From: a candidate division WWE3 bacterium | Lineage (GTDB): Bacteria; Patescibacteriota; WWE3; 2-01-FULL-39-13 | DNA: 64,000 nt | Direction of reading: 5' to 3' | NCBI GenBank assembly: GCA_943354835.1 | Contig: CALRDH010000002.1 | Span: 42,270 to 106,269 of the forward strand | In this document: piece after piece, positions 9,962 through 34,976 of the stretch | Numbering within the stretch: position 1 is the stretch's first letter | Layout of the letters: each line of letters opens with the position of its first letter | Program-made: the position numbers and the translations under genes | Notes under the pieces: model-generated | Databases searched by the model: none | What the model saw: only the letters and a program-made list of their open reading frames with translations | Told to the model about the DNA's origin: nothing

Positions 9962-9963
9962 GT

Positions 9964-10365: not shown

Positions 10366-10491
10366 TTTCCCTTTCATTCTTTGACCTAGTTTGTTATACT
10401 CCAAGCAACTATTTTTGCTGGTATATATGGAGTTTTCTTTGTTTTGGCAAACATATTTAGCAAACCCTGACCCACTCATTCTCTTTGGCAT
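10366..10491. repeat. 126-bp direct repeat, copy 1, carrying a truncated copy of the T4CP promoter and 5' end
   Basis: About 93% identical to 11672-11797. It encodes a YMEFSLFWQTYLANPDPLILFG remnant (ORF 10391-10633). Confidence 0.85.
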
Positions 10492-10548
10492 TTGTAAAAG
10501 AAAAATCGTCTCAGATTCTGCCATTTTAGCCCCCGAGCTGTTTCCTCT

Positions 10549-11022: not shown

Positions 11023-11124
11023 AGTGTTTCAACTAATTATTGGCTAACTTAACAAACACTATCAAAAATTTATTCACCCAAACACAGCTTTACTAAGTGT
11101 TGGTTATACACCTTACCTAACTCA

Positions 11125-11358
11125 TTATTTGTAAAAATCCAAGTAAGAAAGAAGTATTAAAAAGTCATCAAAAAACATAGGACCCTCACACATTCTTTTT
11201 CTTGCTTCCTCACACTTCAAATTAATAGAAATCGTTGAATAACTACTAAAGCAAGCACATCCATCGATGGGTGCATATTTAAAACTACCAGGTGTTAAAT
11301 TCATCCAACCAATCAAGAGTAGAAAAAGTGCAATAATTAAATATGATACATTTTTCAT
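11125..11358 (-). CDS. small secreted Cys-containing peptide (paralog of 11362-11598)
   Basis: An MKN... signal peptide followed by a Cys-containing mature part. Confidence 0.4.
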   Translation of the reverse strand: MKNVSYLIIALFLLLIGWMNLTPGSFKYAPIDGCACFSSYSTISINLKCEEARKRMCEGPMFFDDFLILLSYLDFYK

Positions 11359-11361
11359 AAT

Positions 11362-11598
11362 TTAAAAAAGTAAAATACCTAAAAATAAAACATAATGACC
11401 CTCTTCGCAGTTTACAACCCATCTTCCAAATGGTGCCCACATTACTTGGTAGTCGCAACCCGTCCCACCTTCGTCTGTGCCAATAACACTGTACTGATCA
11501 GTGACTAAAGCATAGTTAGAATCTCTATCCATCCAGGGAGCCCATGCAAACACTATCAAAAACATTAGGGCAACAATTTTAATTACTTTATTTTTCAT
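11362..11598 (-). CDS. small secreted Cys-containing peptide (paralog of 11125-11358)
   Basis: Has a signal peptide. It has the same architecture as its neighbour and sits in tandem with it. Confidence 0.4.
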   Translation of the reverse strand: MKNKVIKIVALMFLIVFAWAPWMDRDSNYALVTDQYSVIGTDEGGTGCDYQVMWAPFGRWVVNCEEGHYVLFLGILLF

Positions 11599-11671
11599 TA
11601 CTGCTAATTATAATGGTCCTGTTGTATAAATCAAAGTTTAAATGTTTGTCGCGTGTGTAATTAAGAAAGCT

Positions 11672-11797
11672 TTTCCCTTTCATTCTTTGACCTACTTTGT
11701 TATACTCCTAGCAACTATTTTTGCTGGTATATATGGAGTTTTCTTACTTTTGGCAAACATATTTAACAAACCCTGACCCACTCATTCTCTTTGGCAT
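11672..11797. repeat. 126-bp direct repeat, copy 2 (the functional T4CP promoter and start)
   Basis: It matches 10366-10491. It contains TTGACC and an extended -10 (TGtTATACT). Confidence 0.85.
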
Positions 11798-17013: not shown

Positions 17014-17694
17014 ATGCTACTACCTACAATTACTAATAAACAAAAAGAAATACTTCACTATCTCTATAGATTCAGATTCCTCAACCGTATTCAAATTCAA
17101 TCACTCCTCAATCACAAAGACCCAAAAAATACCAATGTCTGGCTCAAAGATCTTACAACCAAAAACTACACTGGCAAAATCTTCGAAAGAACACCGGGAA
17201 TAAATAAACCAGCACTGTATTACCTTACAAATAACGGAATCAAGTTTTTTAGCTCTGCCGAGGGAGCGGATAAGAAACGATTAAGAAAACTGTATCAAGA
17301 GAAAAGAAGATCTCAAGGCTTCATTGATCAGTGCGTACTCATTGCAGATATATACCTCAAGCTGAAAGCTCAAAATCTACAAGACTTCAAACTGTACACA
17401 CAAGCAGACTTGCCAACAAACTCAGTCATCCGTGATCTTTTACCAAGCTTTGCCTATGTCTACTCAAAAGATGCCAAACTACAGCATCACACTTGCGAGA
17501 TCATTAAAGACGGCACGCCACGGTTTGCCATTCGCTCAAGAATTAACCAATACATTGAGTTTTTTAAAGATCAACCAACCATGCAGATTGTGTTTGTCTG
17601 CCAGTCGCAAAAAATTCTTGCCTTTGTTCAAAAATTCATAGAAAAAATTTCTGAAGAAAGCGAATTGCAAAATATTCATGTAACAAATATATAA
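17014..17694 (+). CDS. replication-relaxation (Replic_Relax)-like protein; candidate DNA-processing protein of the element
   Basis: N-terminal KQKEILHYLYRFRFLNRIQIQSLL resembles PF13814. 226 aa. Assignment is tentative. Confidence 0.35.
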   Translation: MLLPTITNKQKEILHYLYRFRFLNRIQIQSLLNHKDPKNTNVWLKDLTTKNYTGKIFERTPGINKPALYYLTNNGIKFFSSAEGADKKRLRKLYQEKRRSQGFIDQCVLIADIYLKLKAQNLQDFKLYTQADLPTNSVIRDLLPSFAYVYSKDAKLQHHTCEIIKDGTPRFAIRSRINQYIEFFKDQPTMQIVFVCQSQKILAFVQKFIEKISEESELQNIHVTNI

Positions 17695-18279: not shown

Positions 18280-18606
18280 TTACTCAAGTATCGCACTTGG
18301 CATTACCTCACTCATTCGTTTCTCGGTAAAATACCTATCTCTTTCTATACCTAAGCCAAATCTACCAACGTAGCTTTCTAGCTCATCAAGAGAAAAGTAT
18401 CCCCATTCATCATTGTAATCACCAAATATCGATACAAATCCAAAGAATTCTTTTGAATTGGTATCGTATTCAGTTGCAAGCCAAGTACCTGCTCCTGTTG
18501 GATTAAAGAACTTTGCAATAACAATCGGATCTTTATCATCCTCTTGTCTACCAACCTTCTCAAATCTCAATAACAACTCCTTTGTTAACAATTTCATAAC
18601 TTTCAC
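18280..18606 (-). CDS. DUF2958-like protein, common on conjugative elements
   Basis: KFFNPTGAGTWLATEYD...FFGF is a DUF2958 signature recalled from memory. Confidence 0.5.
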   Translation of the reverse strand: MKVMKLLTKELLLRFEKVGRQEDDKDPIVIAKFFNPTGAGTWLATEYDTNSKEFFGFVSIFGDYNDEWGYFSLDELESYVGRFGLGIERDRYFTEKRMSEVMPSAILE

Positions 18607-18640
18607 CTCCTTTAAGGGAATAAATTAATAACTACTACCT

Positions 18641-19057
18641 CTAAATCAGCTCATGCTCTTTAAAGCTATAGAACTCTTTATCAGTAAAAATGATGTGATC
18701 TATTACATCTGTTGAGAGTATCTTTCCAGCTTCACACAAGCGCTTAGTTATGCTTATGTCCTCATAAGACGGACTTGTTTCACCTGATGGATGATTATGG
18801 GCAAGTATTATTGCTGGAGTTCTCTTATGTATAACTCTTGTAAATACCTCTCTTGGATGCGCTAATGACTGTGTCAGAGTACCAACGCTAACCAAATCCA
18901 TAATTTTAATTTTGTTTCTAATATCCAGATGAAAAACAAAGAAGTGTTCTTTATCTTGATCAAAATCATCAAGTGTCAGAAAGTAAGCTTTTAACAGCTC
19001 AAATACACACTTAGGACTCGCTACAGATACTTTGGCATCTTGCAGTTTGATAATCAT
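18641..19057 (-). CDS. radC: RadC-like JAB/MPN domain protein
   Basis: HNHPSGETSPSYEDI is the JAMM motif (HxHx7Sx2D). 138 aa, C-terminal domain only. Confidence 0.8.
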   Translation of the reverse strand: MIIKLQDAKVSVASPKCVFELLKAYFLTLDDFDQDKEHFFVFHLDIRNKIKIMDLVSVGTLTQSLAHPREVFTRVIHKRTPAIILAHNHPSGETSPSYEDISITKRLCEAGKILSTDVIDHIIFTDKEFYSFKEHELI

Positions 19058-19446
19058 CTCGATCTCACCCCCTTTCTTTAATAAATTAATAACTTGCAGA
19101 TAAGATTTTTATTCCTATCATGCAAAAAAAGGGGCATGGGGTGAAAATCAAACGAAGTGGTATGTCAAAAGTTTTTGCGGAGCAAAGCAGAGTCAAAAAG
19201 GATTTTTAGTGAGGAACGAGCTAAAAACCCACCTTTTGACAGATGATTTTAACCCCATAAAATGAAGAAGCATGATAGGAAGAAAAGGGGGAATCATCCT
19301 TATTAATATAAGAGTGAGGGTTTACTTCTAACTTATATTTTTAAATCACCATCGTTTAGTCACTTTGCTATAAAGGTGTAGAATTGATTTTCAATTAACT
19401 CTGGTATCAGATGGAAGCAAGTCTTTATACTGCGGATGACCTTTTG

Positions 19447-22400
19447 CTACCAATCTGTGTATGAATTCATTTGCTTTAGATATTGCATCTTGATTTTTGC
19501 TTCCTGTACCAACTTGATAACATTGCTTAATTCTTCTCCCCATGTAGGAACTCCCCAGCCTTTTTTGTCATTTTCAACCATGAGCTCTATGCTGGTAATA
19601 ACTTCCAAAGGATATTCGGGAGCGAGCGTAATAAATCTCTCAACTATAAGATGATCTCCTTCAATGTCACATCCGAGCTTCAAAACCTCAATTAGTTTTT
19701 CCAAGCTCCACTCGTTTTCAAACTTTTCAGAATACACCCACCAGCTAAAGTCTTTGAATTCCTGTATTTCAGCATGGACGTTTTTACCTGCTTTGATTTC
19801 TGTGAGTCTTTTCTCAGCAAGTGCGATAAACTTATCTTTTATTGGAACTGCCATCATTTCACCATTTTTTGCTGATCCTCCAATAAAGTCGATCACTTCT
19901 GCTCTCAACTCCAAAGGAGCAACATCATAAAAGTCTTTCAATAAATCTTTATCCAGAGGAATTTTTCCACGGCAGTAGAAGAGAATGAGATGCTGTGCGA
20001 GATTCTGTTCTGGGTTTTCTAAATGGTGTCTCCCGTCAGTATGCTTACCAATTTCTTCGACTGCTCTTTGATACTGCGGTATGAGCATAGGCATGAAATT
20101 GTCATAAGCAGTATTAAAAGTGATGAAAGTTTCCCATGCTGCATCAAAGTATTTTTGTTTTTCAGGATCATTAGGGAAAATGTCCTTTACATGTTCTTCT
20201 ACCCAAGTAGCATCTAGCCAAGCAAGGTTTCCAAGTCGTTCCCCATACAATGCTCGTATACCAACTGAGGGATCAATTTTTGTATCTAAATGGTCATTCA
20301 ACACCTTCAAAAGCTCTGGGGCATTTTTGTCTATGCTCCAATCTTTTCGTTTATCTTCAGGTACTGAACTCTTCAACCATATACCGTATCTGATGGCAGC
20401 CTGCATTGCGTCTCCTCGGGTAGAACTTATCGCAACTGTTAAAGGATCACGATCTGACTCTAGTTGCTTTGCTTCTTCCTCGGGGGTTGGGTTAGCGTCA
20501 TTTGTCAAAACTTCAATGATCTTCCAAACTTCTTCTTTCAATTCCTGAGGTATTTTTCCTTCCTCTGCATCCAATCCTTCTCTGAGCAATTCTGCAATTG
20601 CTTTCCTGCTCCAATTCCAATCAGGATCATCACCGTAAAAACCAGATAGCTTCCGGTCTTTTACTTCAATCGGCTTTGTCAAAATCGTTACTGAAAGGTC
20701 GAGTATTGGTTTCCAGTCAAAACTTTTATTTTGCCTTAATGCGTCACGATGACCAGTAAAAACAGAACGGACATACGTTGGATCTAAATCCATGAAAGAA
20801 GTAAGGCTCTGCGACCATTTAGCAGGGTCATTTGCTATTTGTGTCACCAAGGCTCTGCTTGTTCCTTCTCGTGAGATATCAAGGGGATCACCTTCTGTTG
20901 GTGGTTCCCATTTTTTAAGAAAATCCACCACTTCGCCAGGTTTCATATCTTTGAATTGTTCGTCAGATATACTGCTCTTATATCCCCAGCTTGATCCACC
21001 TGACCAAGAACGAAAGGAAGGGAATTCAGGTTCTCCAACTACAGACACTAGTTCTTCATAGTATTTTTTCCAATCAGGATCAGTTTCCTTGAAAGGCAGC
21101 AAGTGATACATCTGCCAATTTTTCTTATACTTTGCTACTTGTTCATCTGAGGGTTCTACACCATTCTCCTTGCATCTTGCCTTGTAGGCTTCCATGTCTA
21201 CTTCCACACCTTTCTCAATCCATGACCACAACTCTTTCCTTTGCGCTGTTGATAAAAGGGATGCGTGTGTTTCTGCAAGTAGGAAGTATTCGTGAGTAAG
21301 GCGCTTTTTATCTGCAAACTCCTCCTTGTTCATAAGAAGCTGCGTTATCTTCTTTTCAGAACCCTTTGGGAATAATCGCAGAAGATGCAATACAAGGCGC
21401 TGAAAGACGAGTAGCTTTCGTGGCTCCAATTCCGAAAGGAGTGCTTCTATTTGATCAGGATGGTTCGTAAGATATCTCTCGCAAGCATCTCTCATTCCTG
21501 TTACCAGCACGTCTTTAATGCCGTATTTATGGTTTTGAGAGTGGTCTTCAATGGCTGATCTCCATATCTCAGAGTAGTCATCTTTGGAACCACTTTCCCT
21601 GTCAACATCAGAGTGTTTTATGTAATTCTCATACTGATCGATAAGAACTTTGACTGCATCTATACCCGCAGCATCAACAAAATCAGGAAAATCCTTTTCG
21701 AGTATTTCTTCATAATCGTAATCTCTTATGAGAGGTATCGGATCGTGTGGGATCTTGTGTCCACCATATTCAGGAGCTGGACGAGGATCAGGTTGAATAG
21801 CAAGCACTCTATTGGCGAGTGTTACGGCTTCTTTTACTTTTCCATATAGAGCTAAATATTTGATGAGTTTTCCATATTTCTCAGGGCTCAAAAAATAGTC
21901 GATTTCATCAATACTTTCAACAATCTGAACAGACATTTCTACCGGAAGTAATAATGCTATTTCCAATAACTCAGTTCGTGCTCGTGTGTTTTCTGTTTCC
22001 ACATCAAGACATATGGCCAAGACCTCACTTTGCTTTTGAGGAATTACTGCCATCTTTTTCAAATACAAAGCTTGTGACCAAAAAGGGTAGCTGGTTCCTC
22101 CTTCTGGGTGCTCCATTGGAGGTGGTGGTATCTTGAAAAATCCCGCATCTTTTAGAAGGATCAACCAATTTGGATTATCCAACTTTTCAAAAAAATAATT
22201 GTAGGAAACTGGACTATTTGGCACCTTCTCTTTAAGTTTTTTGACATCATCTGTGGTAACTATTTTTAATTCAACCAACTGATCGAGAATTGCAAAAAAT
22301 CCTAAATACTTACCCTCCATTTTGTTTAAAACTGCATCAAGGATTATTTGGACACTTTCCCATAAGTCTTTGAAGGAATTGCTTCTGCTTGCAGGAAAAC

Positions 22401-22794
22401 CAAGGTTATTTCTATGAACAAAGTGGTATATAGCAATATCATCCTGTTTATTTGCAGTTCGCAACCATAAGCCTGCAATATCACTATCAGAATCTAAGTC
22501 ATAAGCTTCGAGTATTGCTTTAACCTTTTCCTTATGTGACTCTTCTTTCTTTTCACCCTCAGCAGACACTGCAAAGCCCTCTGGAAGTAACATATCAATA
22601 ACTGTTCCCATTACTTCTCTTAAACAGTGGGCAATCAGGTTGGTTTTTGAGTCTTTTGGTGGTTCCTCATCCCACATTCGACAAGCATCCTTAAAAAATC
22701 CAGCAGGGACATGTCCAATTTCCAAAAGTTTTTTGTGTATTCTTTCTTGTCTTGGATCGCTAAATTTAAAAACTTGGGGAGTTTTCGTATTCAT
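19447..22794 (-). CDS. 1115-aa hypothetical protein, translationally coupled downstream of hsdS; candidate defence-associated protein
   Basis: Long uninterrupted ORF. Its start overlaps the hsdS 3' end by 29 nt. Trp-rich, no P-loop, and it appears GC-richer than its surroundings. Confidence 0.55.
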   Translation of the reverse strand: MNTKTPQVFKFSDPRQERIHKKLLEIGHVPAGFFKDACRMWDEEPPKDSKTNLIAHCLREVMGTVIDMLLPEGFAVSAEGEKKEESHKEKVKAILEAYDLDSDSDIAGLWLRTANKQDDIAIYHFVHRNNLGFPASRSNSFKDLWESVQIILDAVLNKMEGKYLGFFAILDQLVELKIVTTDDVKKLKEKVPNSPVSYNYFFEKLDNPNWLILLKDAGFFKIPPPPMEHPEGGTSYPFWSQALYLKKMAVIPQKQSEVLAICLDVETENTRARTELLEIALLLPVEMSVQIVESIDEIDYFLSPEKYGKLIKYLALYGKVKEAVTLANRVLAIQPDPRPAPEYGGHKIPHDPIPLIRDYDYEEILEKDFPDFVDAAGIDAVKVLIDQYENYIKHSDVDRESGSKDDYSEIWRSAIEDHSQNHKYGIKDVLVTGMRDACERYLTNHPDQIEALLSELEPRKLLVFQRLVLHLLRLFPKGSEKKITQLLMNKEEFADKKRLTHEYFLLAETHASLLSTAQRKELWSWIEKGVEVDMEAYKARCKENGVEPSDEQVAKYKKNWQMYHLLPFKETDPDWKKYYEELVSVVGEPEFPSFRSWSGGSSWGYKSSISDEQFKDMKPGEVVDFLKKWEPPTEGDPLDISREGTSRALVTQIANDPAKWSQSLTSFMDLDPTYVRSVFTGHRDALRQNKSFDWKPILDLSVTILTKPIEVKDRKLSGFYGDDPDWNWSRKAIAELLREGLDAEEGKIPQELKEEVWKIIEVLTNDANPTPEEEAKQLESDRDPLTVAISSTRGDAMQAAIRYGIWLKSSVPEDKRKDWSIDKNAPELLKVLNDHLDTKIDPSVGIRALYGERLGNLAWLDATWVEEHVKDIFPNDPEKQKYFDAAWETFITFNTAYDNFMPMLIPQYQRAVEEIGKHTDGRHHLENPEQNLAQHLILFYCRGKIPLDKDLLKDFYDVAPLELRAEVIDFIGGSAKNGEMMAVPIKDKFIALAEKRLTEIKAGKNVHAEIQEFKDFSWWVYSEKFENEWSLEKLIEVLKLGCDIEGDHLIVERFITLAPEYPLEVITSIELMVENDKKGWGVPTWGEELSNVIKLVQEAKIKMQYLKQMNSYTDW

Positions 22795-23962
22795 AAGTTG
22801 CGTTGGTGCTTGGCAAAAACGATTTTTGCATTAATGCCTGAAATTGATTTTCCATCTCAGACGACTGAATCAACATTTTTTGTTTAATTGAAACTACTGA
22901 ATTGAATCTATTTACGAAATCTAATTGCTTAGTTATAGGTGGCAAAAGTATCGATAATTTATTTATTTTTCCCAAAAATAAATTTGCTTGACTTGATTGA
23001 TTCACACTTCGCATCATTTCTCTCTGAGAATAATCGGTTCTTAAAAAGTACTCTAAATATTTGGAGAGTATTAAACTTCTATTTGGCTTAATGAGAGCTG
23101 CACTTCTAACAAGTGTAAAAGGCTCGTCGATATCTATAGTTGTCACTCGACCTATCGTTCCAGAGCAAGATATTAATACATCACCCAATTCCGGATTACA
23201 TCTCTTTCGTATTCTCTCGTATTCCACTTCCCCGATATAATCTACACCAGCATTAAAATCTAAATATCCATTTTTAATATTTCTGGCAGATAATAATTTA
23301 ATTCCGTCTATTGTTCTAATCGGCGTAATATGCTCACCATCGGTCACCTTATCAGCAATTTCTTGAATAGTACATTTCTCATATTTGTGCGGATTCATAC
23401 CGGGATTTCCAAACATATCTAAAAAGACAGATTTTAAGTAGTCGTCGAGTAAATCTATTGCTTGCTTGCGTTTTTGGCGAAGTTCGTCTGCTTGATCAAG
23501 AAGTTTTACAATCCTTTTTTGTTCTTCGAGAGGATGTAAAACAAAGCTAAAATTTGAAAAGGTTGTTTTATTTACAATTGGAACTACAGCGCTATTGGCA
23601 ACTTGCTTTAACAAAGGTGCTAATGTTAATGCAAAATAGTACCCATATTTATAGTTAACTAATTTTGGATTAAATGTTAAAGAATTAATTTGCTGATTAG
23701 TGACTAAGTCACAACCCGCTATACCTACCTTGCCAAGAGATCCAATACAGGAAACCATTATAGAATTTTTTGGTATTAAATTAGCTTGTTTTGCTCCATC
23801 TGTTGTAAGATATTCTTCTGTTGAAGTAATTTCTACAGCACCTCCCAAATTTGGTGGTTTTACAAACGGAATAGTTCCATCGAGATAGTAAATGTTTGAC
23901 GATTTACTTGGTGTTTTTCCAGTAGTGACTTGAGCTATGTCTCCAAGCTTTACAATTCTCAT
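22766..23962 (-). CDS. hsdS: Type I restriction-modification specificity subunit HsdS
   Basis: Two target-recognition domains with conserved central and C-terminal coiled regions. It overlaps the hsdM stop. Confidence 0.8.
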   Translation of the reverse strand: MRIVKLGDIAQVTTGKTPSKSSNIYYLDGTIPFVKPPNLGGAVEITSTEEYLTTDGAKQANLIPKNSIMVSCIGSLGKVGIAGCDLVTNQQINSLTFNPKLVNYKYGYYFALTLAPLLKQVANSAVVPIVNKTTFSNFSFVLHPLEEQKRIVKLLDQADELRQKRKQAIDLLDDYLKSVFLDMFGNPGMNPHKYEKCTIQEIADKVTDGEHITPIRTIDGIKLLSARNIKNGYLDFNAGVDYIGEVEYERIRKRCNPELGDVLISCSGTIGRVTTIDIDEPFTLVRSAALIKPNRSLILSKYLEYFLRTDYSQREMMRSVNQSSQANLFLGKINKLSILLPPITKQLDFVNRFNSVVSIKQKMLIQSSEMENQFQALMQKSFLPSTNATYEYENSPSF

Positions 23963-24501
23963 TGTTTAATTTGTTTCAAAACTGAGATTCCATTTAATAT
24001 TTCTTGTTCCAATTTTTCAATCTTTTCTAAAATTACTTTTGGATCTTCGTATACAACTTCTTCATAATTACTTTCTTTATATCTATTAATACTCAAGTCA
24101 AATTTTGCATCTTCAATTTCCTTTTTAGGTACATAAAAAAACTTACTCCTTCTATCGTTTTCAGTAATTGCTTTTCTTGATTCCCATTTTTCTACGATAT
24201 CTGGAATATCGTTATCTTTAATCTTTGCACGCTTATCATCGAGACTGAAGCCATCCGCCTGCATGTCATAAAACCACACTTTTTCAGTTTCCCCACCTTT
24301 TACAAATATCAGAATTGCAGTGCTGACTCCTGCATATGGCTTAAATACACCACTTGGAAGAGAGATAACACCTTGCAACTCACAATCATTTAAAAGCATT
24401 TTTCGTGCCATTACATGCGCATTGCTCGAGCCAAAAAGCACACCATCAGGAACAATTACGCCAGCACGACCACCAATTTTAAGGGATTTAATAATCCTGT
24501 T

Positions 24502-25231
24502 GGGGCTAGTGAAGTTAAAGCGGTATAATGAATCGCAATGGCATCATCTATCAACCTAAATAGCTACTACAAACGTTCACGAATTTCCGAGCGTCAATTT
24601 CGAGTGTTTGTGAAGCATTTTTGCTTCGATGACACAGCTGAAAGAATTGCGAATGAAGTAGGTATTTCACGAAGAGCTACCATTACTTTGCTTGCAAAAA
24701 TGCGGAATAGGATACTCGAGTGGTGTGATGAAGAAGAACGACTGAGTGGCGAAATTGAAGTGGATGAGAGTTATTTTGGTGCCAGGAGAGTTCGAGGAAA
24801 ACGTGGGCGAGGCGCTTCTGGGAAAGTGCCAGTCATTGGTTTACTCAAGAGAAATGGCAAAGTCTACACGCAAGTAGTTCAAAACTGTTCTCGAGAACAA
24901 TTGCTGCCAATTATCCAAGGAAAAGTATTGTCTGAAAGCACAGTTTTTACTGACGCATGGCGCAGTTATGACAGTTTGATCTTACATGGGTATGATCACT
25001 ACCGAATCCACCACCATGAAAATGAGTTTTCTCGAGGAAAAAACCACATCAATGGCATTGAAAGTTTCTGGAGTTTTACCAAAGCCAGATTACTCAAGAT
25101 GAAAGGAGTGCGAAAAGACAAATTCGTGCTACACTTAAAGGAATCTGAGTTTCGTTGGAATTACCGAAAAAGTATGTACCAAGAAATTCTCAAAAGATTG
25201 AGGAAAATTCCGCTTTAACTTCACTAGCCCC
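24502..25231 (+). mobile_element. IS1595-family (IS1016-like) insertion sequence, 730 bp
   Basis: Perfect 22-bp terminal IRs (ggggctagtgaagttaaagcgg and ccgctttaacttcactagcccc). A 7-bp TSD, tcctgtt, sits at 24495-24501 and 25232-25238. Confidence 0.85.
24538..25218 (+). CDS. IS1595-family DDE transposase
   Basis: 226 aa. The N-terminal region is followed by a DDE_Tnp_IS1595-like core (VDESYFG...GYDHYRIHH). Confidence 0.75.
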   Translation: MASSINLNSYYKRSRISERQFRVFVKHFCFDDTAERIANEVGISRRATITLLAKMRNRILEWCDEEERLSGEIEVDESYFGARRVRGKRGRGASGKVPVIGLLKRNGKVYTQVVQNCSREQLLPIIQGKVLSESTVFTDAWRSYDSLILHGYDHYRIHHHENEFSRGKNHINGIESFWSFTKARLLKMKGVRKDKFVLHLKESEFRWNYRKSMYQEILKRLRKIPL

Positions 25232-26211
25232 TCCTGTTTATAAATAGAAGTTCTGTCTTGGTAGTAGGTAATGACAATGATTCGTTAATATCGCCTTTAT
25301 CAATACTCCCTTTAAATGGGGGATTGGCCATAATGACATCGAAATAATTATCTTCGTCATATTTTTTAGAAAGTGTATCTTTTTGCTCAATATTTGGTGA
25401 AGATATACCATGCATCATGAGGTTCATAAGTCCAATGCGCACCATACTATCGTCCATGTCGTAACCAAAAAAAGTATTTTCTTTTAACTGTTTCCACTGT
25501 CTTTCATCTGTTAGCTTATCGCCAAGTGTGCCTCTGGTAAGTCCGTTCTCATCTGTTTTTTGATGCTCTTTACTTGTGTGTTGAGTAAGAATGTGTTGAT
25601 ACGCCCCAAGCAAAAACCCACCAGTGCCACAGGCTGGATCACAAATGGTATCTCCAAGCTTTGGGTTTACTAGCTCACAAATAAGCTGAATGATATGTCT
25701 TGGAGTTCTAAACTGTCCAAGTTTGCCCGCACTTGTTATCTCTGCAAGCAAATGCTCGTATATATCTCCCTGTGTATCTTGAAATGCTTGTCCAGCATCT
25801 TGTTGTTTGGCGATATCCTCAAAAATCTCATCAATAATGCTAACTGCCTCAACAACAAGAGAGGGCTTAGAGATAATAAAAACGGCATTTCCCATGTGTT
25901 TAGAAAAGTTGCTGTTATCAGAGTTTAAATTCTTTAAAAAAGGGAAAACTTTTGTCTGAATATGAGTAAGCATTTCAGAGCCCTCCATATGTCTAAAATG
26001 ACTCCAACGCATTACTTCATTTTCGCCTGCAAAAATAGATTTATATGCTTCTCCCGTAAATTCTGAGTCCTGAACTTTTTTTAGATCCATCTGATCAAGT
26101 CGTTTCATGAAAAGAAGATATGAGATCTGCTCGATAGCAGTAAGTGGATTTGAAATACCACCGCTCCAAAATTTATCCCAAAGTCTATCTATGGATGATT
26201 TGATTGTTGTA

Positions 26212-29022
26212 TTAAGCATAAGCAAATATTTGTTCTGTAAATTGTAAAATTTCTCGTTGCATATGTTTATCAAATAACCCTAAAAATCCATTTTCATGAA
26301 TTTTGGTGAATGGCTCTTGTACGAGGTCTTTTTTATTGAGTGCTCCATTCTCGATGATAAAGGTTTGCAAAGTAGTCAAAAACTGAATTTGCTTTGCAGT
26401 AAGGGTGTTATGTGTTGCAATAAATGTTGCAAAAGCTTCTGTGACTTTTTCAGGAAAAGTTACAAGTTCACCAATCCCCATGATGTATTTAATAAGATCA
26501 AGAAAGCCAACTTTTCTAGCATCATACGCTTTTTGTAAGTTTTCTTCTGTAGGATACGGATCGTATTCAGACAGTGCTTCTGCAAGATCTTCAATTTCTT
26601 CTGCAGTTATACTTTCTCCCTGTTTAATTTTCTGTAGTGTTTCATTTTCTTCTTCTAGTTTTTTGACAAGAGCCTCAACTTTTTCTCTATATTTTTGAAT
26701 GGTGATTCTTTCATTAGAAGGACCAAACTTGATGTACATTTTTTCTGAAGTGACATCTTTTAAGTTGAAAGAGTCTTGCTTTGGCTTAATTCCCTCGTCT
26801 CGATACTTCATGAGAGGACATATCTTCTCGATGACTATATTTAGTTCATCTTCACCAGCGTTTGATAGATATCCTCCGTTTAGTATGGCCTCAATTAACG
26901 CTTCTTGCTTTGCAACGATATTAACGGTTAGTGGAAGGTCAGAGACTATTTCAATCAGTGCTTCTCCTGTTGTTGCAAGCTTCTTCTCATCCCTTTCATC
27001 TCCTTGCAACTTGATGATAGAGTAGCGAATCACTTTTATCTCAAAACTCATTGCTTTGTAGTCTTCACCTGTTCGAGTTCTCATTAGTGGCGCAATCTCC
27101 TTGAGAAGGAAATCTTTTTTATCTTGAGTGAGTCGTTGCCAAAAAGATTCATTTACTTGCGCAAGGAGTTCTTTATTGTCCAAAATAACTACATTATTTT
27201 GTGGAAGTTTTGCAATTTCTTGCTGTAATTTTGCAATACAATCAGCAACGACTGCTTCATTTCCTACATTTTGTGCAAGCTCAAGTTTTTCAAGTCGTGC
27301 TTCAAAAAGTCGTACTGGCATAGGTTTTGTAGGTCTATCAATCTTCCCCGTTGGATTCATCTGAAAGTATTCAAAATTCTCCCAGCAGTCCATGATTAAA
27401 AACTTATCCTTTTTCTTGCACCAAGGTTTGATTTTCTTAGCTTCAAGTAAGCGTGTGCCACGTCCAATCATTTGCCAAAACTTTGTATACGAAAAAACAG
27501 GCTTAGCAAACACCAGATTCACAAGCTCTCGAATATCAATGCCTGTATCAAGCATGTCTACGCTTATGGCAATTCTTGGAAAATCATTATTTATAAATTG
27601 ATCAAGCAAACCACCCTTGCCATAAACCCTAGAATCATCCGACACAATTACTTTGGCTAAATTTCCCTTATGTTCTGGGTACAGATCATCAAAAACTTCT
27701 TGCAATCTTCTGGCATGTTTCATGGTCATAGCAAAAAAGATTGATTTTCCCGGTAATGTACCGCTTTCATCCTTGATAGATTCTTCCATGAATTCTTGTA
27801 CTATAAGAGCGTTTGTTCCTTTGTTTGTTACCTTTTTTTCAATATCCGTACCCTCATAATTAATTTCCTCTGGTTCTTTGCCATCAGCTAATAATTTTTG
27901 TTGTTCCCCAACAGAAATATTATCTTTACGAATACCTTCTTTTTGAAATTTTGTTCTTATCTTCAAAACTTCGTAATCACTAAGATATGGGGGGATATTA
28001 TTTATAGCTTCCTCGTAGGAGTAAGCAAAAGTAGGCAATCCATCCTCACATTCAAAAAGCCCAAAAGTATTATGTTCTACTGCATCTTTAGGAGTAGCTG
28101 TTAATCCTAGCTGTATGGAATCAAAATAATCAAATATGTTTTTATATACATTGTAGATCGATCTGTGACTTTCATCGGCAATTATTAGATCAAAGAAGTG
28201 GGGGCTTAATGGACAATCTTCTTTCTCAATAATATTGAGCATTGTTGGATATGTCGCGGAGTAAACTCGTCTATCGGTTTGAATATCAGTCTCACCAATT
28301 TTTGGCCAGATTGGTGCATTAGGTAAATACTCTTTAAACGCATCTAGTGCCTGATTGCGAAGAGCAATTCTATCGACTAAAAATAATACTTTTTGAATTC
28401 TATTTGCTCGCATCAGCACATCAATCATCGACACGGCGGTTCTTGTCTTACCAGTACCCGTAGCCATTACTAAAAGAGCTTTCCTTTTGCCTTTATCTAA
28501 GGTCTCAAATACTGATCTAATTGCCTCAATTTGATACGGTCGTCCAGAAATCTCTCTATTAATTAGTTCTTGAGATAATGGCTTTTCATTTTTTCTTTGA
28601 AAAAGAAGTCTTTCTAAATCTTTTTTACTTGGAAAGCCATGAACTTTTCTAGGTGGCGACTTTTCTGTATCCCAAAAGTAAATGTCATGTCCATTCGTAT
28701 AAAAAACAAACGGCATTTCTTTACCAGAATTTTTTTGAATATTAACTGCGTACTGTTTAGCTTGTTCTTGACCAACTCGAGCATCTCTAGAAGTCTTTTT
28801 TGCTTCTACTACTGCAAGAGGATACCCATCATCACCTAGTAGAACATAATCTGCATACTGAAACCCTTGGTGTTCATGTTCTGGCTCAGTAATACCTTCA
28901 GGCAAACCTACCCAAATATCCAACTCTGAAGTTACCTGTGAAGGATTACCAATGTCCCAACCAGCTTTTAACAGCCGTTTATCAATTATTTCTTGTCTTG
29001 TTTTTGCTTCTGTAGGACTCAT
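26212..29022 (-). CDS. hsdR: Type I restriction enzyme R subunit HsdR
   Basis: Walker A LLVMATGTGKT, the DEAH-box IIADESHRS, helicase C motifs, 936 aa. Confidence 0.85.
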   Translation of the reverse strand: MSPTEAKTRQEIIDKRLLKAGWDIGNPSQVTSELDIWVGLPEGITEPEHEHQGFQYADYVLLGDDGYPLAVVEAKKTSRDARVGQEQAKQYAVNIQKNSGKEMPFVFYTNGHDIYFWDTEKSPPRKVHGFPSKKDLERLLFQRKNEKPLSQELINREISGRPYQIEAIRSVFETLDKGKRKALLVMATGTGKTRTAVSMIDVLMRANRIQKVLFLVDRIALRNQALDAFKEYLPNAPIWPKIGETDIQTDRRVYSATYPTMLNIIEKEDCPLSPHFFDLIIADESHRSIYNVYKNIFDYFDSIQLGLTATPKDAVEHNTFGLFECEDGLPTFAYSYEEAINNIPPYLSDYEVLKIRTKFQKEGIRKDNISVGEQQKLLADGKEPEEINYEGTDIEKKVTNKGTNALIVQEFMEESIKDESGTLPGKSIFFAMTMKHARRLQEVFDDLYPEHKGNLAKVIVSDDSRVYGKGGLLDQFINNDFPRIAISVDMLDTGIDIRELVNLVFAKPVFSYTKFWQMIGRGTRLLEAKKIKPWCKKKDKFLIMDCWENFEYFQMNPTGKIDRPTKPMPVRLFEARLEKLELAQNVGNEAVVADCIAKLQQEIAKLPQNNVVILDNKELLAQVNESFWQRLTQDKKDFLLKEIAPLMRTRTGEDYKAMSFEIKVIRYSIIKLQGDERDEKKLATTGEALIEIVSDLPLTVNIVAKQEALIEAILNGGYLSNAGEDELNIVIEKICPLMKYRDEGIKPKQDSFNLKDVTSEKMYIKFGPSNERITIQKYREKVEALVKKLEEENETLQKIKQGESITAEEIEDLAEALSEYDPYPTEENLQKAYDARKVGFLDLIKYIMGIGELVTFPEKVTEAFATFIATHNTLTAKQIQFLTTLQTFIIENGALNKKDLVQEPFTKIHENGFLGLFDKHMQREILQFTEQIFAYA

Positions 29023-29173
29023 ATGTAGGATTAGATACTAAATCACTCAATTTGCACAACTATATTTTACCGTAAATATCATCAAATACCTCAGGGTATT
29101 CTTGTTACACTCGGCTCAAAGCTGATTTTACTCCTAAAATCTATATATTAGCTAGTGAATCAACAAATTATGG

Positions 29174-29202
29174 TTGACATAAAGATATTCAGTTTATATA
29201 AT
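29174..29202 (+). promoter_or_regulatory. consensus sigma70-type promoter (TTGACA, 17 nt, TATAAT) upstream of the T4SS operon
   Basis: TTGACA at 29174-29179, a 17-nt spacer, and TATAAT at 29197-29202, 58 nt before the pilin-like gene. Confidence 0.6.
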
Positions 29203-29259
29203 TCGATCACTTTATAGTATTTCGTTATAAGTTTCCCTACCCAGAGAAAAATAAAATAT

Positions 29260-29544
29260 ATGGGCAACAATATTCCAGGATACGACAGCGCGCAACCTAT
29301 TCAGTTCGCCAACTTAGACAGTCTGCTATGGGGTGTTGTAAAAACTCTCCAGTATTTTTCACTTCCAGTTATGGCTCTTTCAATTGCAGCACTTGGCATT
29401 GCGTTAATCGCTAGTGGTGATGACACAGAGAGAAAATCCAGACTCAAAGGATGGATATTTAATATATTGATTGGTGGTCTTTTAGTCTTTGGGTCAGCCA
29501 GTATAGCAAGTATTCTTAAACAATTTGTTGGTGGCACAAACTAA
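29260..29544 (+). CDS. VirB2/TrbC pilin-like small membrane protein
   Basis: A 94-aa protein with two hydrophobic helices. It is the first gene of the VirB4 operon. Confidence 0.45.
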   Translation: MGNNIPGYDSAQPIQFANLDSLLWGVVKTLQYFSLPVMALSIAALGIALIASGDDTERKSRLKGWIFNILIGGLLVFGSASIASILKQFVGGTN

Positions 29545-31316: not shown

Positions 31317-32103
31317 AGACGACATACGAACACATATCTTGCGGAGCCTATTTTTTACCGATACGGCTATCGTTTCTGCTGGCATTGTTTTTATATCGGT
31401 TGGCATTTACCTTATTTTTGTCTACGGCTTTCATTTTTTCGATTGGGGGTATTATCTCTCAACACTCTTTGTTGCCATCATCTTTTTTATTGCATTTGTC
31501 AGTCAGAAAATCGACAACCAACCAATTTTTAAAATTGTCCCACGAGCAACTACTTTTTCGACATCTACAAAAGAACTGCGGGTAACAAATATAGATCCGT
31601 ACTTTACTGATTTTCATATTCAAGATGATCTGATTGTCCGCAAAGACAAACTTATTCGAGTCTATGAAATCGAGCCATTCGATATTGCGCTACTCAACGA
31701 ACAAGACCGTGAGCACTTTTTTATTAGACTAAAACAGGCTATTCATGTACTACCAGCGCAAACACAGTTTATTGTGCGAAAGGTACCAGCAAAAAGTAGT
31801 GACTACTCAAAGCACTTCTTTTCTCTCTATGATGATTCGTCTTCTGATCGAGAATCACTCGTGCATGAATATATTGAGAATCTAACCAAACTTGTTGATA
31901 CCAGTTCATTTTTTATTACCAAACACTTTGCAGTACTTTCAGTAAGCTGTACAACACACAAACCACAAGCAGTTGTTGAGGGGGTAAAAAAACTAAACGA
32001 TAGTAGCTCACGACTTACTGCATCTTTGGTAGTGTGCAATATTTCTACAAAACCCGTGATTAATGAAGAGTTGAAACAATTTGTTAGGAGTATTTTACGA
32101 TGA
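31294..32103 (+). CDS. VirB3-like / small T4SS membrane component
   Basis: Two adjacent TM helices near the N-terminus. Its stop overlaps the VirB4 start. Confidence 0.35.
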   Translation: MRNIRIYKDDIRTHILRSLFFTDTAIVSAGIVFISVGIYLIFVYGFHFFDWGYYLSTLFVAIIFFIAFVSQKIDNQPIFKIVPRATTFSTSTKELRVTNIDPYFTDFHIQDDLIVRKDKLIRVYEIEPFDIALLNEQDREHFFIRLKQAIHVLPAQTQFIVRKVPAKSSDYSKHFFSLYDDSSSDRESLVHEYIENLTKLVDTSSFFITKHFAVLSVSCTTHKPQAVVEGVKKLNDSSSRLTASLVVCNISTKPVINEELKQFVRSILR

Positions 32104-34202
32104 TCAAACATTCTATAAAAACCAGCATGCGCACACTACTACAAAATATTCGGAACTTTAGTCTCACCTTTACACTAAAAGATCAAGTTGACTCTCTTAG
32201 CCACGAAAGAGATGTCTATACCGAAGAATTGATTGCTATAAAAAAAGAAACAGACCTACTTAAAACTCGAAATGAGGGTTTAAAGAAACTCGAAGAACAA
32301 GTATTGCAGTCTGCACAATCTACAACAGAAAAGGCACTCAAGGAAGAAATTAAACGACTTATGGAAGTGGTGTCATCTCAGGCTGAAACAATAGAAAAAC
32401 AGCCATTTTTAGGCCATACAGTAGCTAAGATTGCCAAGCCAACACAAGCAAAAAGCAGAACTCCACTTGGGTTTATAAAAAGCTACTTTGCCTTTAAAAA
32501 GGAGCTTAAAGCTTATGAGAAAAAAATCTTGCATGATGCAAAAGAGAAATTTCACTTAGTAGTTGAGAAACGAGATGAAACTATACACATTGATAGAGCA
32601 ACTGAAAGTTCATATAAAAGTGAATATATTGTTGAACACAGTAATTATCTTGATGTGAATGGCAAAGTTAAACGGTTATATTACCTTGCCGATATTCCAG
32701 CGTACCTCAGTCCCTATGTATTTTTCCGTCTTCTGACTTCTTCATTGCCATTTACACTCAGTATTTTTATTGAACCTGCCTCAAGTACTGAACTGCTCAA
32801 AAAGGCACGACAAAGATTGTCTGTTCTTGAAATGCAACAGAATGAAAGACTCAGATCTGGAAAAATACGAGACCAACAAATTGATAAAAATATTGATGAA
32901 GTCATGAGTTTTATAGATGAACTAGTGCACGAGGCAGAAAAAGGTATTGTCTATTCCCTCTATCTACAACTTGAAGCAGATACGCCAAAAGAACTAGAGG
33001 CACTACATAAAGAGCTTCAAAATATTGCGGGAAGCATGGATTTAACATTCAATCAATACACCTTTGGTCAAAAACAAGCGTTCAAAAACTTTTTACCATT
33101 TGCTCAAGATCATGTGCAGGAAAATAGAATTTTACAATCAACTGCAGTCTCATACTTAATGCCGTTTGTTTCAAAACATCTGAATGACCCTGACGGTATA
33201 TTTATGGGGCTGAATGCTTATAACGACTCGCTCATATTTATGGATCCGTTCACCTCAAGGAATAATAATATCAACATCTTTGGTGTATCTGGATCGGGGA
33301 AAAGTGTGACTTCAAAAGTATTGATGAACAGACTGTATATGAGAGGTGTCCAAATTTTAGCAATTGATCCAGAAGGCGAATATGTAAACCTTGCAAAATC
33401 GCTCGGTGGAGAGGTGATTCAGTTTTCCAGAGAAAATGGTATCAATCCTTTTCATATCAACAGCACCAGAGAAAACGATATTCTCGATCACATCTCGACA
33501 CTCAAAACATTCTTTAAGTTTTTTATTCCTCAAGATCACTACGATGGAGCTGTGCTTGATGAACATTTAATTACACTCTATGACTCTAGTACACCAAACT
33601 TTGAAAACTTACTAGAACTATTGGGCACACACCCTATGGCAAAAGATTTAAGCGTGTTGTCTACTGGAAGCTTGCGAGGAATATTTAATTCAAAGCGAAA
33701 ACTAGAACTAGATAATAATTTCATTGTTTTTGATCTGCATGACCTCAAAAAAGACGAGAAGCGTGAGCCTGCCATGTACCTTTTGACTTCACTTATCTGG
33801 AATCTGATCAATATACAAAATGGCAAAAAGCGCATGCTTTTTATTGATGAAGCCCACAAACTACTCGTTGATCCAGAGGTTGCAGTTTTCTATAGAGAAC
33901 TAGTCAAGCAAGCACGAAAAAGAAACACGGGAGTTGTCTCAATTACTCAGGATGTTGAGGACTTTTTACATAACGACTACGGCAAGGCGATTATCACAAA
34001 CTCTGAAACTAAGATTTTGCTAAAACAATCCTATGCTGCATTATCTGAAATAGGGACAATCTACCCTATGACTGATGAAGAAAAGCAACAACTCGGGCAT
34101 CTGGGCATTGGTGAAGTAATTCTTTTTAGAGAAGCAGAGCACCTACGACTCAATACGATTGTACTTCCATTTGAGAAACCACTTGTTTTTACCAGTGATT
34201 AA
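32100..34202 (+). CDS. virB4: VirB4/TrbE/TcpF-family type IV secretion ATPase
   Basis: Walker A IFGVSGSGKSVT, AIDPEGEY, Walker B LFIDEAHKLL, and ITQD. 700 aa. Confidence 0.85.
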   Translation: MIKHSIKTSMRTLLQNIRNFSLTFTLKDQVDSLSHERDVYTEELIAIKKETDLLKTRNEGLKKLEEQVLQSAQSTTEKALKEEIKRLMEVVSSQAETIEKQPFLGHTVAKIAKPTQAKSRTPLGFIKSYFAFKKELKAYEKKILHDAKEKFHLVVEKRDETIHIDRATESSYKSEYIVEHSNYLDVNGKVKRLYYLADIPAYLSPYVFFRLLTSSLPFTLSIFIEPASSTELLKKARQRLSVLEMQQNERLRSGKIRDQQIDKNIDEVMSFIDELVHEAEKGIVYSLYLQLEADTPKELEALHKELQNIAGSMDLTFNQYTFGQKQAFKNFLPFAQDHVQENRILQSTAVSYLMPFVSKHLNDPDGIFMGLNAYNDSLIFMDPFTSRNNNINIFGVSGSGKSVTSKVLMNRLYMRGVQILAIDPEGEYVNLAKSLGGEVIQFSRENGINPFHINSTRENDILDHISTLKTFFKFFIPQDHYDGAVLDEHLITLYDSSTPNFENLLELLGTHPMAKDLSVLSTGSLRGIFNSKRKLELDNNFIVFDLHDLKKDEKREPAMYLLTSLIWNLINIQNGKKRMLFIDEAHKLLVDPEVAVFYRELVKQARKRNTGVVSITQDVEDFLHNDYGKAIITNSETKILLKQSYAALSEIGTIYPMTDEEKQQLGHLGIGEVILFREAEHLRLNTIVLPFEKPLVFTSD

Positions 34203-34208
34203 TACAGT

Positions 34209-34976
34209 ATGAAAGCACTCGGTTACGCACATGCTTTTAAAAAGCTCAAAGAAGACCCATTCGGAGTTGCTGTTGATGCTCTGATTACTGTTGTGGTGCA
34301 TATATTTTCGCCACTTCCTATACCCGGCGCACTTGTGGCGCAGTTTAAAGTTCCTATTCTTGGATTTTTAGCGTCTCTAGCTATTTTATTCTTCTTCATG
34401 ATTATGCTTGTTGGTACAGTTTTTATGTCGCCACTGATTGTCAGCTCTGGATACTGGACAGAATTTATTTCACATTTTCAGGATCAAGAGGGAGAATATC
34501 AATCTGATTCTGGATTTACTCAAACACAAATTCCAAAACAAAGCCCACTCGGAGGATCAGGGATGAATTTTGTCACAGTAACTGCTTATTTTTTAGATCC
34601 AAGTTATTATCTGCAATTTGGAAGAAATCATACAGGTATTGATCTTGTTCCATCAGATTCTTACTATCAAAATAGCCAAGCATACAAAGACACGGGTGAA
34701 GTAGTAACCTTTGCAACAATTAATGGAAATGTCCGCTACTACATTGACCAATATGGCGGGAATACCGTTGAAATCACTAGTGATAACGGCTCAATTCAAG
34801 TACTTTACATCCATTTTAGTAGAGTTTTGGTTCAATCTGGTAAGGTAACGGCGGGCACTCCGATTGGAATTATGGGAGATACGGGTAATGCGACAGGTGA
34901 ACATGTACACTATGAAGTACGCACTAAAAATGGTAATAACTGGCAGGCGGTAAATCCGTTAAACTATATAGAGTAA
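34209..34976 (+). CDS. M23/LytM peptidoglycan endopeptidase; T4SS-associated cell-wall hydrolase
   Basis: HTGIDL, and GTPIGIMGDTGNATGEHVHYEV with the HxH zinc site. It has an N-terminal TM region. Confidence 0.8.
   Translation: MKALGYAHAFKKLKEDPFGVAVDALITVVVHIFSPLPIPGALVAQFKVPILGFLASLAILFFFMIMLVGTVFMSPLIVSSGYWTEFISHFQDQEGEYQSDSGFTQTQIPKQSPLGGSGMNFVTVTAYFLDPSYYLQFGRNHTGIDLVPSDSYYQNSQAYKDTGEVVTFATINGNVRYYIDQYGGNTVEITSDNGSIQVLYIHFSRVLVQSGKVTAGTPIGIMGDTGNATGEHVHYEVRTKNGNNWQAVNPLNYIE

Follow-up and report, generated by a model that had tools for sequence, protein, structure and literature searches.

What does a 1115-codon ORF overlapping the end of a type I restriction-modification (R-M) operon encode, and does it belong to that operon? 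The ORF lies on the minus strand at 19447-22794 of the window (the whole 64,000-nucleotide stretch of DNA analysed), with its ATG at 22794. An earlier note had claimed this ORF and a 29-nt same-strand overlap between its start and hsdS (22766-23962), and both are present in the sequence.

The operon and its lesions

Genes for all three type I subunits lie upstream of the large ORF, also on the minus strand. hsdR (26212-29022; 936 aa, restriction subunit) matches Pfam ResIII (5.5e-44), EcoEI_R_C (8.2e-27) and HSDR_N, as well as PADLOC REase_I (7.6e-171). hsdS (398 aa, specificity subunit), whose final 29 nt are shared with the next gene, matches Pfam Methylase_S (1.2e-34) and PADLOC Specificity_I (5.6e-73). 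Both genes are intact; hsdM is split. Its 5' fragment (25232-26219, minus strand; called as a gene in locus L001) covers Pfam HsdM_N, N6_Mtase profile positions 3-141 and PADLOC MTase_I profile positions 2-310 of 491, and its 3' fragment (23959-24501, minus strand) covers N6_Mtase positions 188-307 and MTase_I positions 330-488 of 491. The proposed hsdR-hsdM-hsdS operon is thus present in its subunit families, but with hsdM disrupted by an insertion sequence (IS). The orthologous operon in locus L006 is intact and has an HsdM of 505 aa.

The insertion is a 730-bp IS1595-family element (24502-25231; Pfam DDE_Tnp_IS1595, 7.5e-31; NCBIfam transpos_IS1595, 2.9e-47), with its transposase, identified by the same matches, on the plus strand at 24538-25218. 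It is bounded by 25-nt inverted repeats (24502-24526 and 25207-25231, 96% complementary) and flanked by a 7-bp target duplication, TCCTGTT (24495-24501 and 25232-25238). When the element and one copy of the duplication were excised in silico, a single continuous hsdM ORF was regained. An identical insertion was found in a second sample (L073). The element runs antisense to the operon and lies downstream of the operon promoter, ahead of hsdS and the large gene. The large gene is attached to the operon, as had been claimed, but its co-transcription with the R-M genes and its function in the window are doubtful, given the disrupted hsdM and a frameshift in the large gene itself. A promoter and terminator scan gave counts at or below shuffle expectation.

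The frameshift lies at the 3' end of the large gene (GTAC^AGGAAGC, 19499-19509, minus strand), where one base is missing from a Leu codon at 19505-19506. Comparison of the three-frame translation with 15 homolog C-termini showed that this deletion swaps out the conserved last 37 residues. The original tail (...EFIHRLVAKGHPQYKDLLPSDTRVN*) is legible in another frame as far as 19391, and the orphaned, now out-of-frame 3' end (19391-19504, minus strand; GSKNQDAISKANEFIHRLVAKGHPQYKDLLPSDTRVN*) matches the consensus EFIHRLVAKGHxQYKDLL of alignment A3. Inserting one base at the lesion yields a 1134-aa protein with the family C-terminus, compared with 1105-1178 aa in intact relatives. The frameshift has cost the sensor described below its conserved C-terminal helix, including the near-invariant L and G of RLxAxGH, and the last 15 residues of the 1115-aa protein have an AF2 pLDDT below 50. 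L001 and L073 carry the same frameshift; a relative of at least 90% identity (P0198, 1143 aa) is intact. We rejected sequencing error as the cause, since three assemblies from two samples share the lesion, one of them with an extra substitution. Programmed frameshifting was also rejected, as there is no slippery heptamer around the lesion and the relatives are single ORFs; it is further disfavoured by the site itself, where a Leu codon has simply lost one nucleotide.

The chances are about even that the locus is dead in this genome, the frameshifted sensor gene and the split hsdM being pseudogenes carried passively by a conjugative element. Two independent lesions within 6 kb, both recovered in two samples, are consistent with this, as are the near-invariant positions in the lost tail and an antisense element that separates the operon promoter from its last two genes. 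However, 1096 of ~1134 codons are still open without further stops, and the lesion is therefore recent. The truncated protein might keep activity, and transcription from an internal or IS-borne promoter is possible (weak match at 24554-24525). Moreover, the question concerns the state of the window copy, not the identity of the gene family. The locus in the window is the decaying cargo of an integrated conjugative element, and as such an example of defence-island decay.

The GC excess of the large ORF is real (GC 0.397, GC3 0.339) but modest, at ~2 SD above the remaining window ORFs (GC 0.342 ± 0.028), and a T4CP gene is equally GC-rich; the corresponding GC and GC3 values are 0.335 and 0.248 for hsdS and 0.360 and 0.263 for hsdR. 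The protein is indeed Trp-rich (2.6%, against 0.77% in the remaining window ORFs), and a Walker A motif ([AG]xxxxGK[ST]) is absent, in agreement with the reported lack of a P-loop.

Sensor region and N-terminal domain

The earlier note had found no motif that it could name in the large protein. This has been overtaken by a match to the PADLOC profile for defence-associated sirtuin 1 (Dsr1, PDLC04166; E=1e-51), in which aa 184-1113 align with profile positions 309-1210 of 1227. The alignment spans ~930 residues and begins past the SIR2 part of the profile. The in-frame part of this region, aa 184 to ~1096 (19507-22245, minus strand), is identified from the PADLOC match, an AF2 model and tblastn. 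The full-length AF2 model is an all-helical solenoid (pLDDT 84.9), and tblastn with the large protein retrieved 'SIR2 family protein' entries of the Bacillus cereus group together with haloarchaeal ATPases and ATP-binding proteins. The NCBIfam Dsr1 model gave a partial match (40.3 bits against a cut-off of 1400). Foldseek with the full model against the PDB returned only generic HEAT/ARM solenoids (TM below 0.3), with no match to an Avs7 or Dsr1 structure; PDB sequence searches with the large protein and with the N-domain profile gave chance-level matches only. Neither the full protein nor 28 N-terminal domains scored above threshold against Pfam, NCBIfam and PHROGs. The protein does not have the fold of a housekeeping enzyme. 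The 930-residue body of the "unknown" protein is instead a Dsr1/Avs7-type sensor, a class described in PMC13581612, and the 1115-aa ORF can be placed in this capsid-sensor class. By its sequence, the gene encodes such a sensor with a predicted HEPN-like domain in place of the sirtuin.

This N-terminal domain (aa 1-192; 22219-22794, minus strand) is all-helical and HEPN-like, and is presumed to be the effector. Its conserved site comprises H56-x2-R59-E60 in helix 50-69 and H127-R128-N129 just before the last long helix, which defines H56, R59, E60 and H127 as candidate residues. E60 is invariant in this second helix in the alignments (E or D in split forms, described below). The canonical Rx4-6H motif is not conserved; H127-R128-N129 stands in its place, without a His 4-6 residues after the Arg, and split forms retain only the His. 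The RQERIH sequence noted earlier as an R-x4-H motif does exist, but H20 is Y or other residues in homologs. HEPN families with alternative His residues have been described (PMC3710099), and the acidic residue of helix 2 coincides with the HEPN active site as placed in that paper, as does the His/Arg-Asn where helix 3 meets helix 4. The domain is covered by no Pfam, NCBIfam or PHROG family, and Foldseek against the PDB gave generic helical-bundle similarity without a significant match; sub-threshold matches to Pfam pP_pnuc_1 (PF18165), a predicted nuclease, occurred in five relatives. Based on the HEPN-like fold and the conserved His/Arg/Glu residues, we infer that the domain is a metal-independent nuclease, most likely an RNase.

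Family, split forms and the link to hsdS

About 40 full-length homologs (1105-1178 aa) have a fixed architecture, and the N-domain is present in 1435 clusters at 50% identity, 500 of them at E<=1e-30. A plasmid protein of Streptomyces sp. NBC_00212 has the identical N-domain and sensor architecture (E=3.5e-37). The capsid-sensor class of the large protein is spread widely through Patescibacteria and numerous uncultured phyla. Homologs of the large protein lie among R-M and other defence genes and mobile elements, not in the mainly non-defence contexts that would have spoken against a defence role.

In ~15 loci, a sensor-only ORF is preceded by a small overlapping gene. This gene encodes the same N-domain in eight loci (with the AHxxRE/D and [AS]H motifs kept) and a SIR2_2 protein in five. 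One split pair comes from the cultured Thermosulfurimonas dismutans S95 (locus L040, 9289-12757). These natural two-gene versions identify the small N-terminal domain as the SIR2-equivalent module. The three forms are intermingled on the sensor tree, and related sensors carry other N-terminal modules, PIN_12 (P0046) and NACHT/nSTAND3 (P0045). The N-terminal slot is thus exchangeable.

The N-domain might instead be a non-enzymatic adaptor or oligomerisation module (effector-associated type) that recruits a separate effector, encoded by the host or within the operon, or sequesters a target. We regard this as rather unlikely, although the canonical catalytic motif is absent, the structural similarity is generic, and EF-Tu serves Avs7 as a scaffold. 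Possible partners exist in some Patescibacteria loci, where conserved proteins of ~550 aa and 240-280 aa without Pfam matches are encoded by overlapping downstream genes. However, the ~550-aa partner is absent from the window, and in most loci, the window included, no such partner is conserved downstream. His, Arg, Glu and His, residues typical of catalytic sites, are invariant across sequences of only ~25% identity, in fused and split forms alike. The domain also sits where relatives have SIR2 and PIN enzymes, which favours an enzymatic N-domain.

We counted neighbours in 65 non-redundant loci of the sensor family. The most recurrent single neighbour was HsdS, always upstream and on the same strand. 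hsdS abuts the large gene or its split effector gene in nine loci from different phyla, including the window. The distance from the hsdS stop to the next start is -2 to +4 nt in seven of these nine; in the other two, L006 and the window, the genes overlap by 17 and 29 nt, respectively. In four further loci hsdS lies within about 4 kb, the linked R-M systems have HsdR subunits of different families, and the same operons contain further embedded defence genes. The view of the gene as a defence gene attached to an R-M operon therefore holds for its recurrence at hsdS, but ~80% of the loci have no adjoining hsd genes. Because of this, the large gene is an autonomous module and not an R-M subunit.

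Stop/start-coupled placement in distant phyla also suggests another possibility, namely that the large protein is a PrrC-like guard, held latent by the HsdRMS complex and activated once the enzyme is disabled by a phage anti-restriction protein; its solenoid would then recognise Hsd subunits and not a phage protein. PMC3710099 links no fewer than 16 HEPN clades to R-M operons and proposes the same logic; the additional embedded defence genes fit as well. Such a guard is nevertheless unlikely. Most loci lack nearby hsd genes, the linked R-M systems differ in HsdR family, and P0198, despite its identity of at least 90%, lies in a different cassette. Furthermore, capsid protein binding has been shown for a sensor homologous to the solenoid, and the ABC ATPase domain of PrrC/RloC is absent.

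The conserved translational coupling to hsdS provides a concrete, testable case of layered defence, in which restriction would act first and abortive infection second, and is possibly the only new point here. The available text of PMC13581612 mentions neither hsdS coupling nor split two-gene forms. A bolder proposal, which we consider unlikely, is that the repeated hsdS placement, seen in different phyla and in fused, split-HEPN-like and split-SIR2 forms alike, reflects a physical or regulatory partnership, with the N-domain as a new HEPN catalytic variant (H-x2-R-E plus a distal His). If so, the type I enzyme or its methyltransferase core might control or enhance the capsid sensor, or be controlled or enhanced by it, and this would be a new kind of integrated R-M and abortive infection system instead of simple co-location.

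Proposed mechanism and known systems

Our preferred reading, to which we assign a probability of roughly 60%, is that the product of the large gene is an anti-phage protein of the Dsr1/Avs7-sensor superfamily that unites sensor and effector in a single polypeptide, that capsid sensing activates its N-terminal nuclease, and that the gene moves as an autonomous mobile cassette. Residues ~184 to the C-terminus would form a bilobed alpha-solenoid sensor homologous to that of Dsr1, and residues 1 to ~190, in the position of the SIR2 domain of Dsr1, a helical HEPN-like domain whose conserved site is non-canonical. By homology, the sensor would bind a conserved structural protein of phages, which in the two characterised relatives is the major capsid protein; the basis for this trigger is an extrapolation from two proteobacterial proteins of ~20-25% identity at best. 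Binding would release or assemble the N-terminal domains, which would then cut as a metal-independent nuclease, most likely on RNA, and the infected cell would be arrested by abortive infection. The cassette, which is recurrently found at the end of type I R-M operons and translationally coupled to them, would add a second layer of defence to DNA restriction. The window copy, frameshifted and in a broken operon, may do nothing here.

In the available text of the papers on this sensor, detection of the phage major capsid protein is shown only for SeAvs7 and EcDsr1 (PMC13581612). Non-STAND proteins are described there in which the Avs7/Dsr1 sensor is joined to NADases, nucleases, kinases or a HEPN-like RNase, and defence was lost when the N-terminal effector was disrupted (PMC13581612, PMC12803255).

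Dsr1 (PDLC04166; NCBIfam NF041818) resembles the large protein in its homologous ~900-residue sensor, in combining an N-terminal effector and a C-terminal sensor in one polypeptide, and in its patchy, mobile distribution. It differs in having SIR2, for which the large protein has no Pfam SIR2/SIR2_2 match and an alignment starting only at profile position 309. The large protein appears to carry a HEPN-like helical effector instead, and NAD+ depletion is therefore not expected. Avs7 likewise has a homologous sensor, and the distant matches include the NACHT/nSTAND3 protein P0045, but its STAND/NACHT NTPase with Walker A is absent from the large protein according to Pfam and motif searches. PrrC/RloC share the arrangement of a presumed HEPN-type RNase encoded inside an hsd operon or as its last gene, with such an RNase serving as a second line of defence, a general principle set out in PMC3710099. 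In contrast to these, the large protein lacks the ABC ATPase and Rx4-6H and has its own large sensor; it is encoded within a type I R-M operon in the window and eight further abutting loci, with only ~20% of family loci linked to hsd genes. HEPN-MNT toxins (SO_3166, HepT; PDB 5yep, 7ae2, 8xdj) share 6-10% sequence identity with the N-domain, which lacks RX4H and an MNT antitoxin and has an additional helix at its N-terminus as well as a longer insert.

The closest counterparts are the non-STAND Avs7/Dsr1-sensor proteins, among which the available text of a 2026 Nature paper names a HEPN-like example, the 'HEPN-like RNase-containing protein' of Streptomyces sp. NBC_00271 (PMC13581612). The comparison is by description, from which the N-domains are presumably the same. 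Like the members of that class, the large protein combines an Avs7/Dsr1 sensor with a presumed non-SIR2 N-terminal effector and has no STAND module.

A Dsr1-type sensor behind a helical N-terminal domain

Most of the large protein encoded behind hsdS (1115 aa; 19447-22794, minus strand), which has no Pfam family, is homologous to the sensor of defence-associated sirtuin 1 (Dsr1). The PADLOC Dsr1 model matched residues 184-1113 (E=1e-51) over profile positions 309-1210 of 1227, which is all but the SIR2 part, and a Pfam search of the protein found no SIR2 domain. The NCBIfam Dsr1 equivalog scored 40 bits, far below its cut-off of 1400. The AF2 model of the full-length protein was an all-helical solenoid (pLDDT 84.9), for which Foldseek against the PDB returned generic HEAT/ARM solenoids only. 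In tblastn searches of plasmids, the sensor was independently tied to 'SIR2 family protein' genes of the Bacillus cereus group and also to haloarchaeal 'ATP-binding protein' genes.

Homology searches recovered about 40 full-length unannotated relatives that share this layout and are 1105-1178 aa long. When the first 192 residues (the N-domain) were searched as a profile, 1435 representatives of 50%-identity clusters matched, 500 of them at E<=1e-30, and nearly all complete representatives were ~1100-1150 aa long. Within this domain, H56, R59, and E60 were invariant, while D36, C38, W110, H127, R128, and W145 were conserved in at least 90% of sequences. The AF2 model of the N-domain was confident (pLDDT 87.6, pTM 0.79) and all-helical; Foldseek gave no significant match, with HEPN toxins again at the top by TM score. 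The canonical Rx4-6H motif was not conserved among N-domains. In HEPN domains, this motif normally lies at the helix 3-helix 4 junction, a conserved acidic residue is found in helix 2, and some families use an alternative His (PMC3710099). According to that structural description, E60 lies in the helix corresponding to HEPN helix 2, and H127-R128-N129, with its polar residue after the Arg, lies at the helix 3-helix 4 junction. Given these placements and the alternative-His families, we infer, at the level of fold, that the N-domain is HEPN-like with a non-canonical site. Such a domain would act as a nuclease, probably an RNase, and the outcome would be abortive infection. A rival reading is that the domain serves as a non-catalytic adaptor.

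Sub-threshold matches to Pfam PF18165 (pP_pnuc_1, 'predicted pPIWI-associating nuclease') were seen at the N-termini of five relatives (the small protein of L040, L025, L050, P0044, and P0047), scoring 17.5-24.3 bits against a cut-off of 26.3, all at profile positions ~4-42. As a lead only, the N-domain may be distantly linked to this family.

An exchangeable effector slot and natural split forms

The N-terminal position serves as a slot for exchangeable effector modules. In distant homologs of the sensor, this slot holds PIN_12 (P0046) or a NACHT/nSTAND3 NTPase (P0045). Among 60 loci taken from species-representative genomes, ~15 contained a sensor-only ORF of ~950-990 aa, starting where the N-domain would end; 13 of these could be assigned. 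At eight (L040, L025, L038, L046, L050, L057, L058, and L063), an overlapping upstream gene encodes a ~220-280-aa protein that has weak similarity to the N-domain profile (E 1e-9 to 2e-3) and retains the AHxxR[ED] and downstream [AS]-H motifs. At the other five (L031, L036, L039, L051, and L062), a SIR2_2 protein of ~300-340 aa is encoded immediately upstream, forming a split Dsr1; the pair in L039 follows hsdM-hsdS-hsdR-YgjP. Fused, split-N-domain, and split-SIR2 forms were intermixed in a neighbour-joining tree of the sensor. The L040 pair (9289-12757) lies directly behind hsdS in Thermosulfurimonas dismutans S95, a cultured isolate, which makes it a convenient experimental entry point.

In several Patescibacteria loci, a DUF2188 gene precedes the sensor gene, and overlapping downstream genes encode conserved proteins of ~550 aa and ~240-280 aa with no Pfam match (L002 13412-15082; L003 12627-14995; L072 13392-15949). 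Together these may form a multi-gene variant of the system; the two partner genes are absent from the window.

Coupling to hsdS and two lesions in the window locus

All genes of the hsd operon are on the minus strand and were identified by Pfam and PADLOC: HsdR (936 aa, 26212-29022; ResIII and EcoEI_R_C), HsdM in two halves (ORFs 25224-26273 and 23959-24441), and HsdS (398 aa, 22766-23962). As the earlier note had claimed, the large ORF starts within hsdS (ATG at 22794), overlapping it by 29 nt. Translational coupling to hsdS was found in one fifth of the loci. After neighbour clustering of 65 non-redundant loci, HsdS was the most recurrent neighbour (13/65, always upstream on the same strand), followed by HsdM (10/65) and HsdR (7/65). 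At nine of the 65, hsdS is directly adjacent to the gene, or to the separate effector gene where the two are split: the distance from the hsdS stop to the next start is -2 to +4 nt in L018, L024, L026, L038, L040, L068, and L070, and the overlap is 17 nt in L006 and 29 nt in the window. These loci come from Thermosulfurimonas, from MAGs labelled Acetothermia, Deltaproteobacteria, Planctomycetales, Eisenbacteria, and Actinomycetota, and from the window and L006, which are Patescibacteria-like relatives. At least two HsdR families are represented among them, and the loci are scattered over the sensor tree, with one clade enriched. The same R-M operons often embed other defence genes (Schlafen/AlbA_2-HATPase_c_4, DUF3800, OLD-family nuclease with AAA_15 and TOPRIM, SIR2-nSTAND; L018 7036-8454, L068 1618-3012, L070 7924-8826, L061 7209-8909, L029 6704-9325).

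We propose that the R-M system and the sensor would cooperate as two layers. A rival explanation is that the protein guards the R-M enzyme in the manner of PrrC. Homologs elsewhere adjoin type IIS/ISP R-M systems and a LexA-like repressor, lie beside a prophage terminase and recombinase or Tn7-like genes, or stand alone.

The earlier note missed an insertion that splits hsdM. A 730-bp IS1595-family element lies there in antisense orientation (whole site 24495-25238; transposase 24538-25218, plus strand), bounded by 25-nt inverted repeats (24502-24526 and 25207-25231) and flanked by a 7-bp direct target duplication, TCCTGTT. In-silico removal of the element and one duplication copy regained a single uninterrupted hsdM frame, and the orthologous operon of a 72%-identical relative (L006) encodes an intact 505-aa HsdM. 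A recent IS insertion has thus inactivated the R-M system of the window.

The large gene is also damaged. The family consensus C-terminus is ...EFIHRLVAKGHxQYKDLL; the window protein instead ends in ...VIKLVQEAKIKMQYLKQMNSYTDW, with AF2 confidence <50 over its final 15 residues. Three-frame translation located the tail that would be expected, GSKNQDAISKANEFIHRLVAKGHPQYKDLLPSDTRVN*, in a different frame, with its stop at 19391-19393. The Leu codon at 19505-19506 is short of one base, and putting it back yields 1134 aa. Both frameshift and IS recur in the Logan assembly L001 and in a second sample (P0197/L073), whose protein differs by one substitution, while a relative at least 90% identical (P0198, 1143 aa) is intact. 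The frameshift is a real, recent mutation. For this copy, a rival reading is that it is a non-functional relic.

Mobile context and relation to known defence proteins

The window defence locus is cargo of an integrated conjugative element at approximately 8377-36000. The element starts at tRNA-Glu (8377-8453) and includes a large serine recombinase (8396-9961), a type IV coupling protein (11721-14351), a relaxase-like Replic_Relax protein (17014-17694), DUF2958 and RadC (18280-19057), and, beyond the defence locus, a TrbC pilin (29260-29544), as well as a 580-aa membrane protein, a VirB4-like ATPase (32100-34202), and an M23 peptidase (34209-34976). The recombinase ORF, from its listed stop to its first start, overlaps tRNA-Glu by ~58 nt on the opposite strand, and this overlap probably marks the attachment site. 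A 391-aa AAA_14 and DUF4143 ATPase (36755-37930, minus strand) is near the presumed right part. GC3 of the large gene was 0.339 vs 0.25-0.26 in the preceding hsd genes; this difference, with the occurrence of a relative of at least 90% identity in a different cassette, is evidence that the cassette moved recently.

Downstream of the large gene is a non-coding gap of 390 nt (19058-19446). A near-consensus promoter-like site at 19236-19263 (plus strand, 11/12 matches) is directed antisense into the 3' end of the large gene, and a perfect 12/12 site (29174-29202, in the gap 29023-29260) is found upstream of the TrbC/T4SS genes. Such sites were no more numerous overall than in shuffled controls.

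The observation in the earlier note was real but incomplete: its defence interpretation was right in direction, but the protein it called unknown falls into a class that is already known. That HEPN domains are linked to R-M systems has been recognised as a general principle since 2013 (PMC3710099), and the searched text of PMC13581612 does not mention hsdS coupling of this sensor family. Three features are of interest: hsdS coupling is conserved, split forms occur naturally, and the HEPN-like site is non-canonical. According to PMC13581612 (Nature 2026; preprint PMC12803255), the Avs7 sensor is common to Dsr1 and other non-STAND defence proteins, whose effectors include NADase, nuclease, kinase, and others; the trigger of SeAvs7 as well as of EcDsr1 is the phage major capsid protein, and defence is lost when N-terminal effectors are disrupted. 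By homology, the window sensor would likewise detect a phage capsid protein. Exactly this N-domain (E=3.5e-37) and this sensor are combined in a 1090-aa 'hypothetical protein' whose gene adjoins Tn7-like genes on a plasmid of Streptomyces sp. NBC_00212. In view of this protein and the description in PMC13581612, the window protein is most likely a member of the class reported there.
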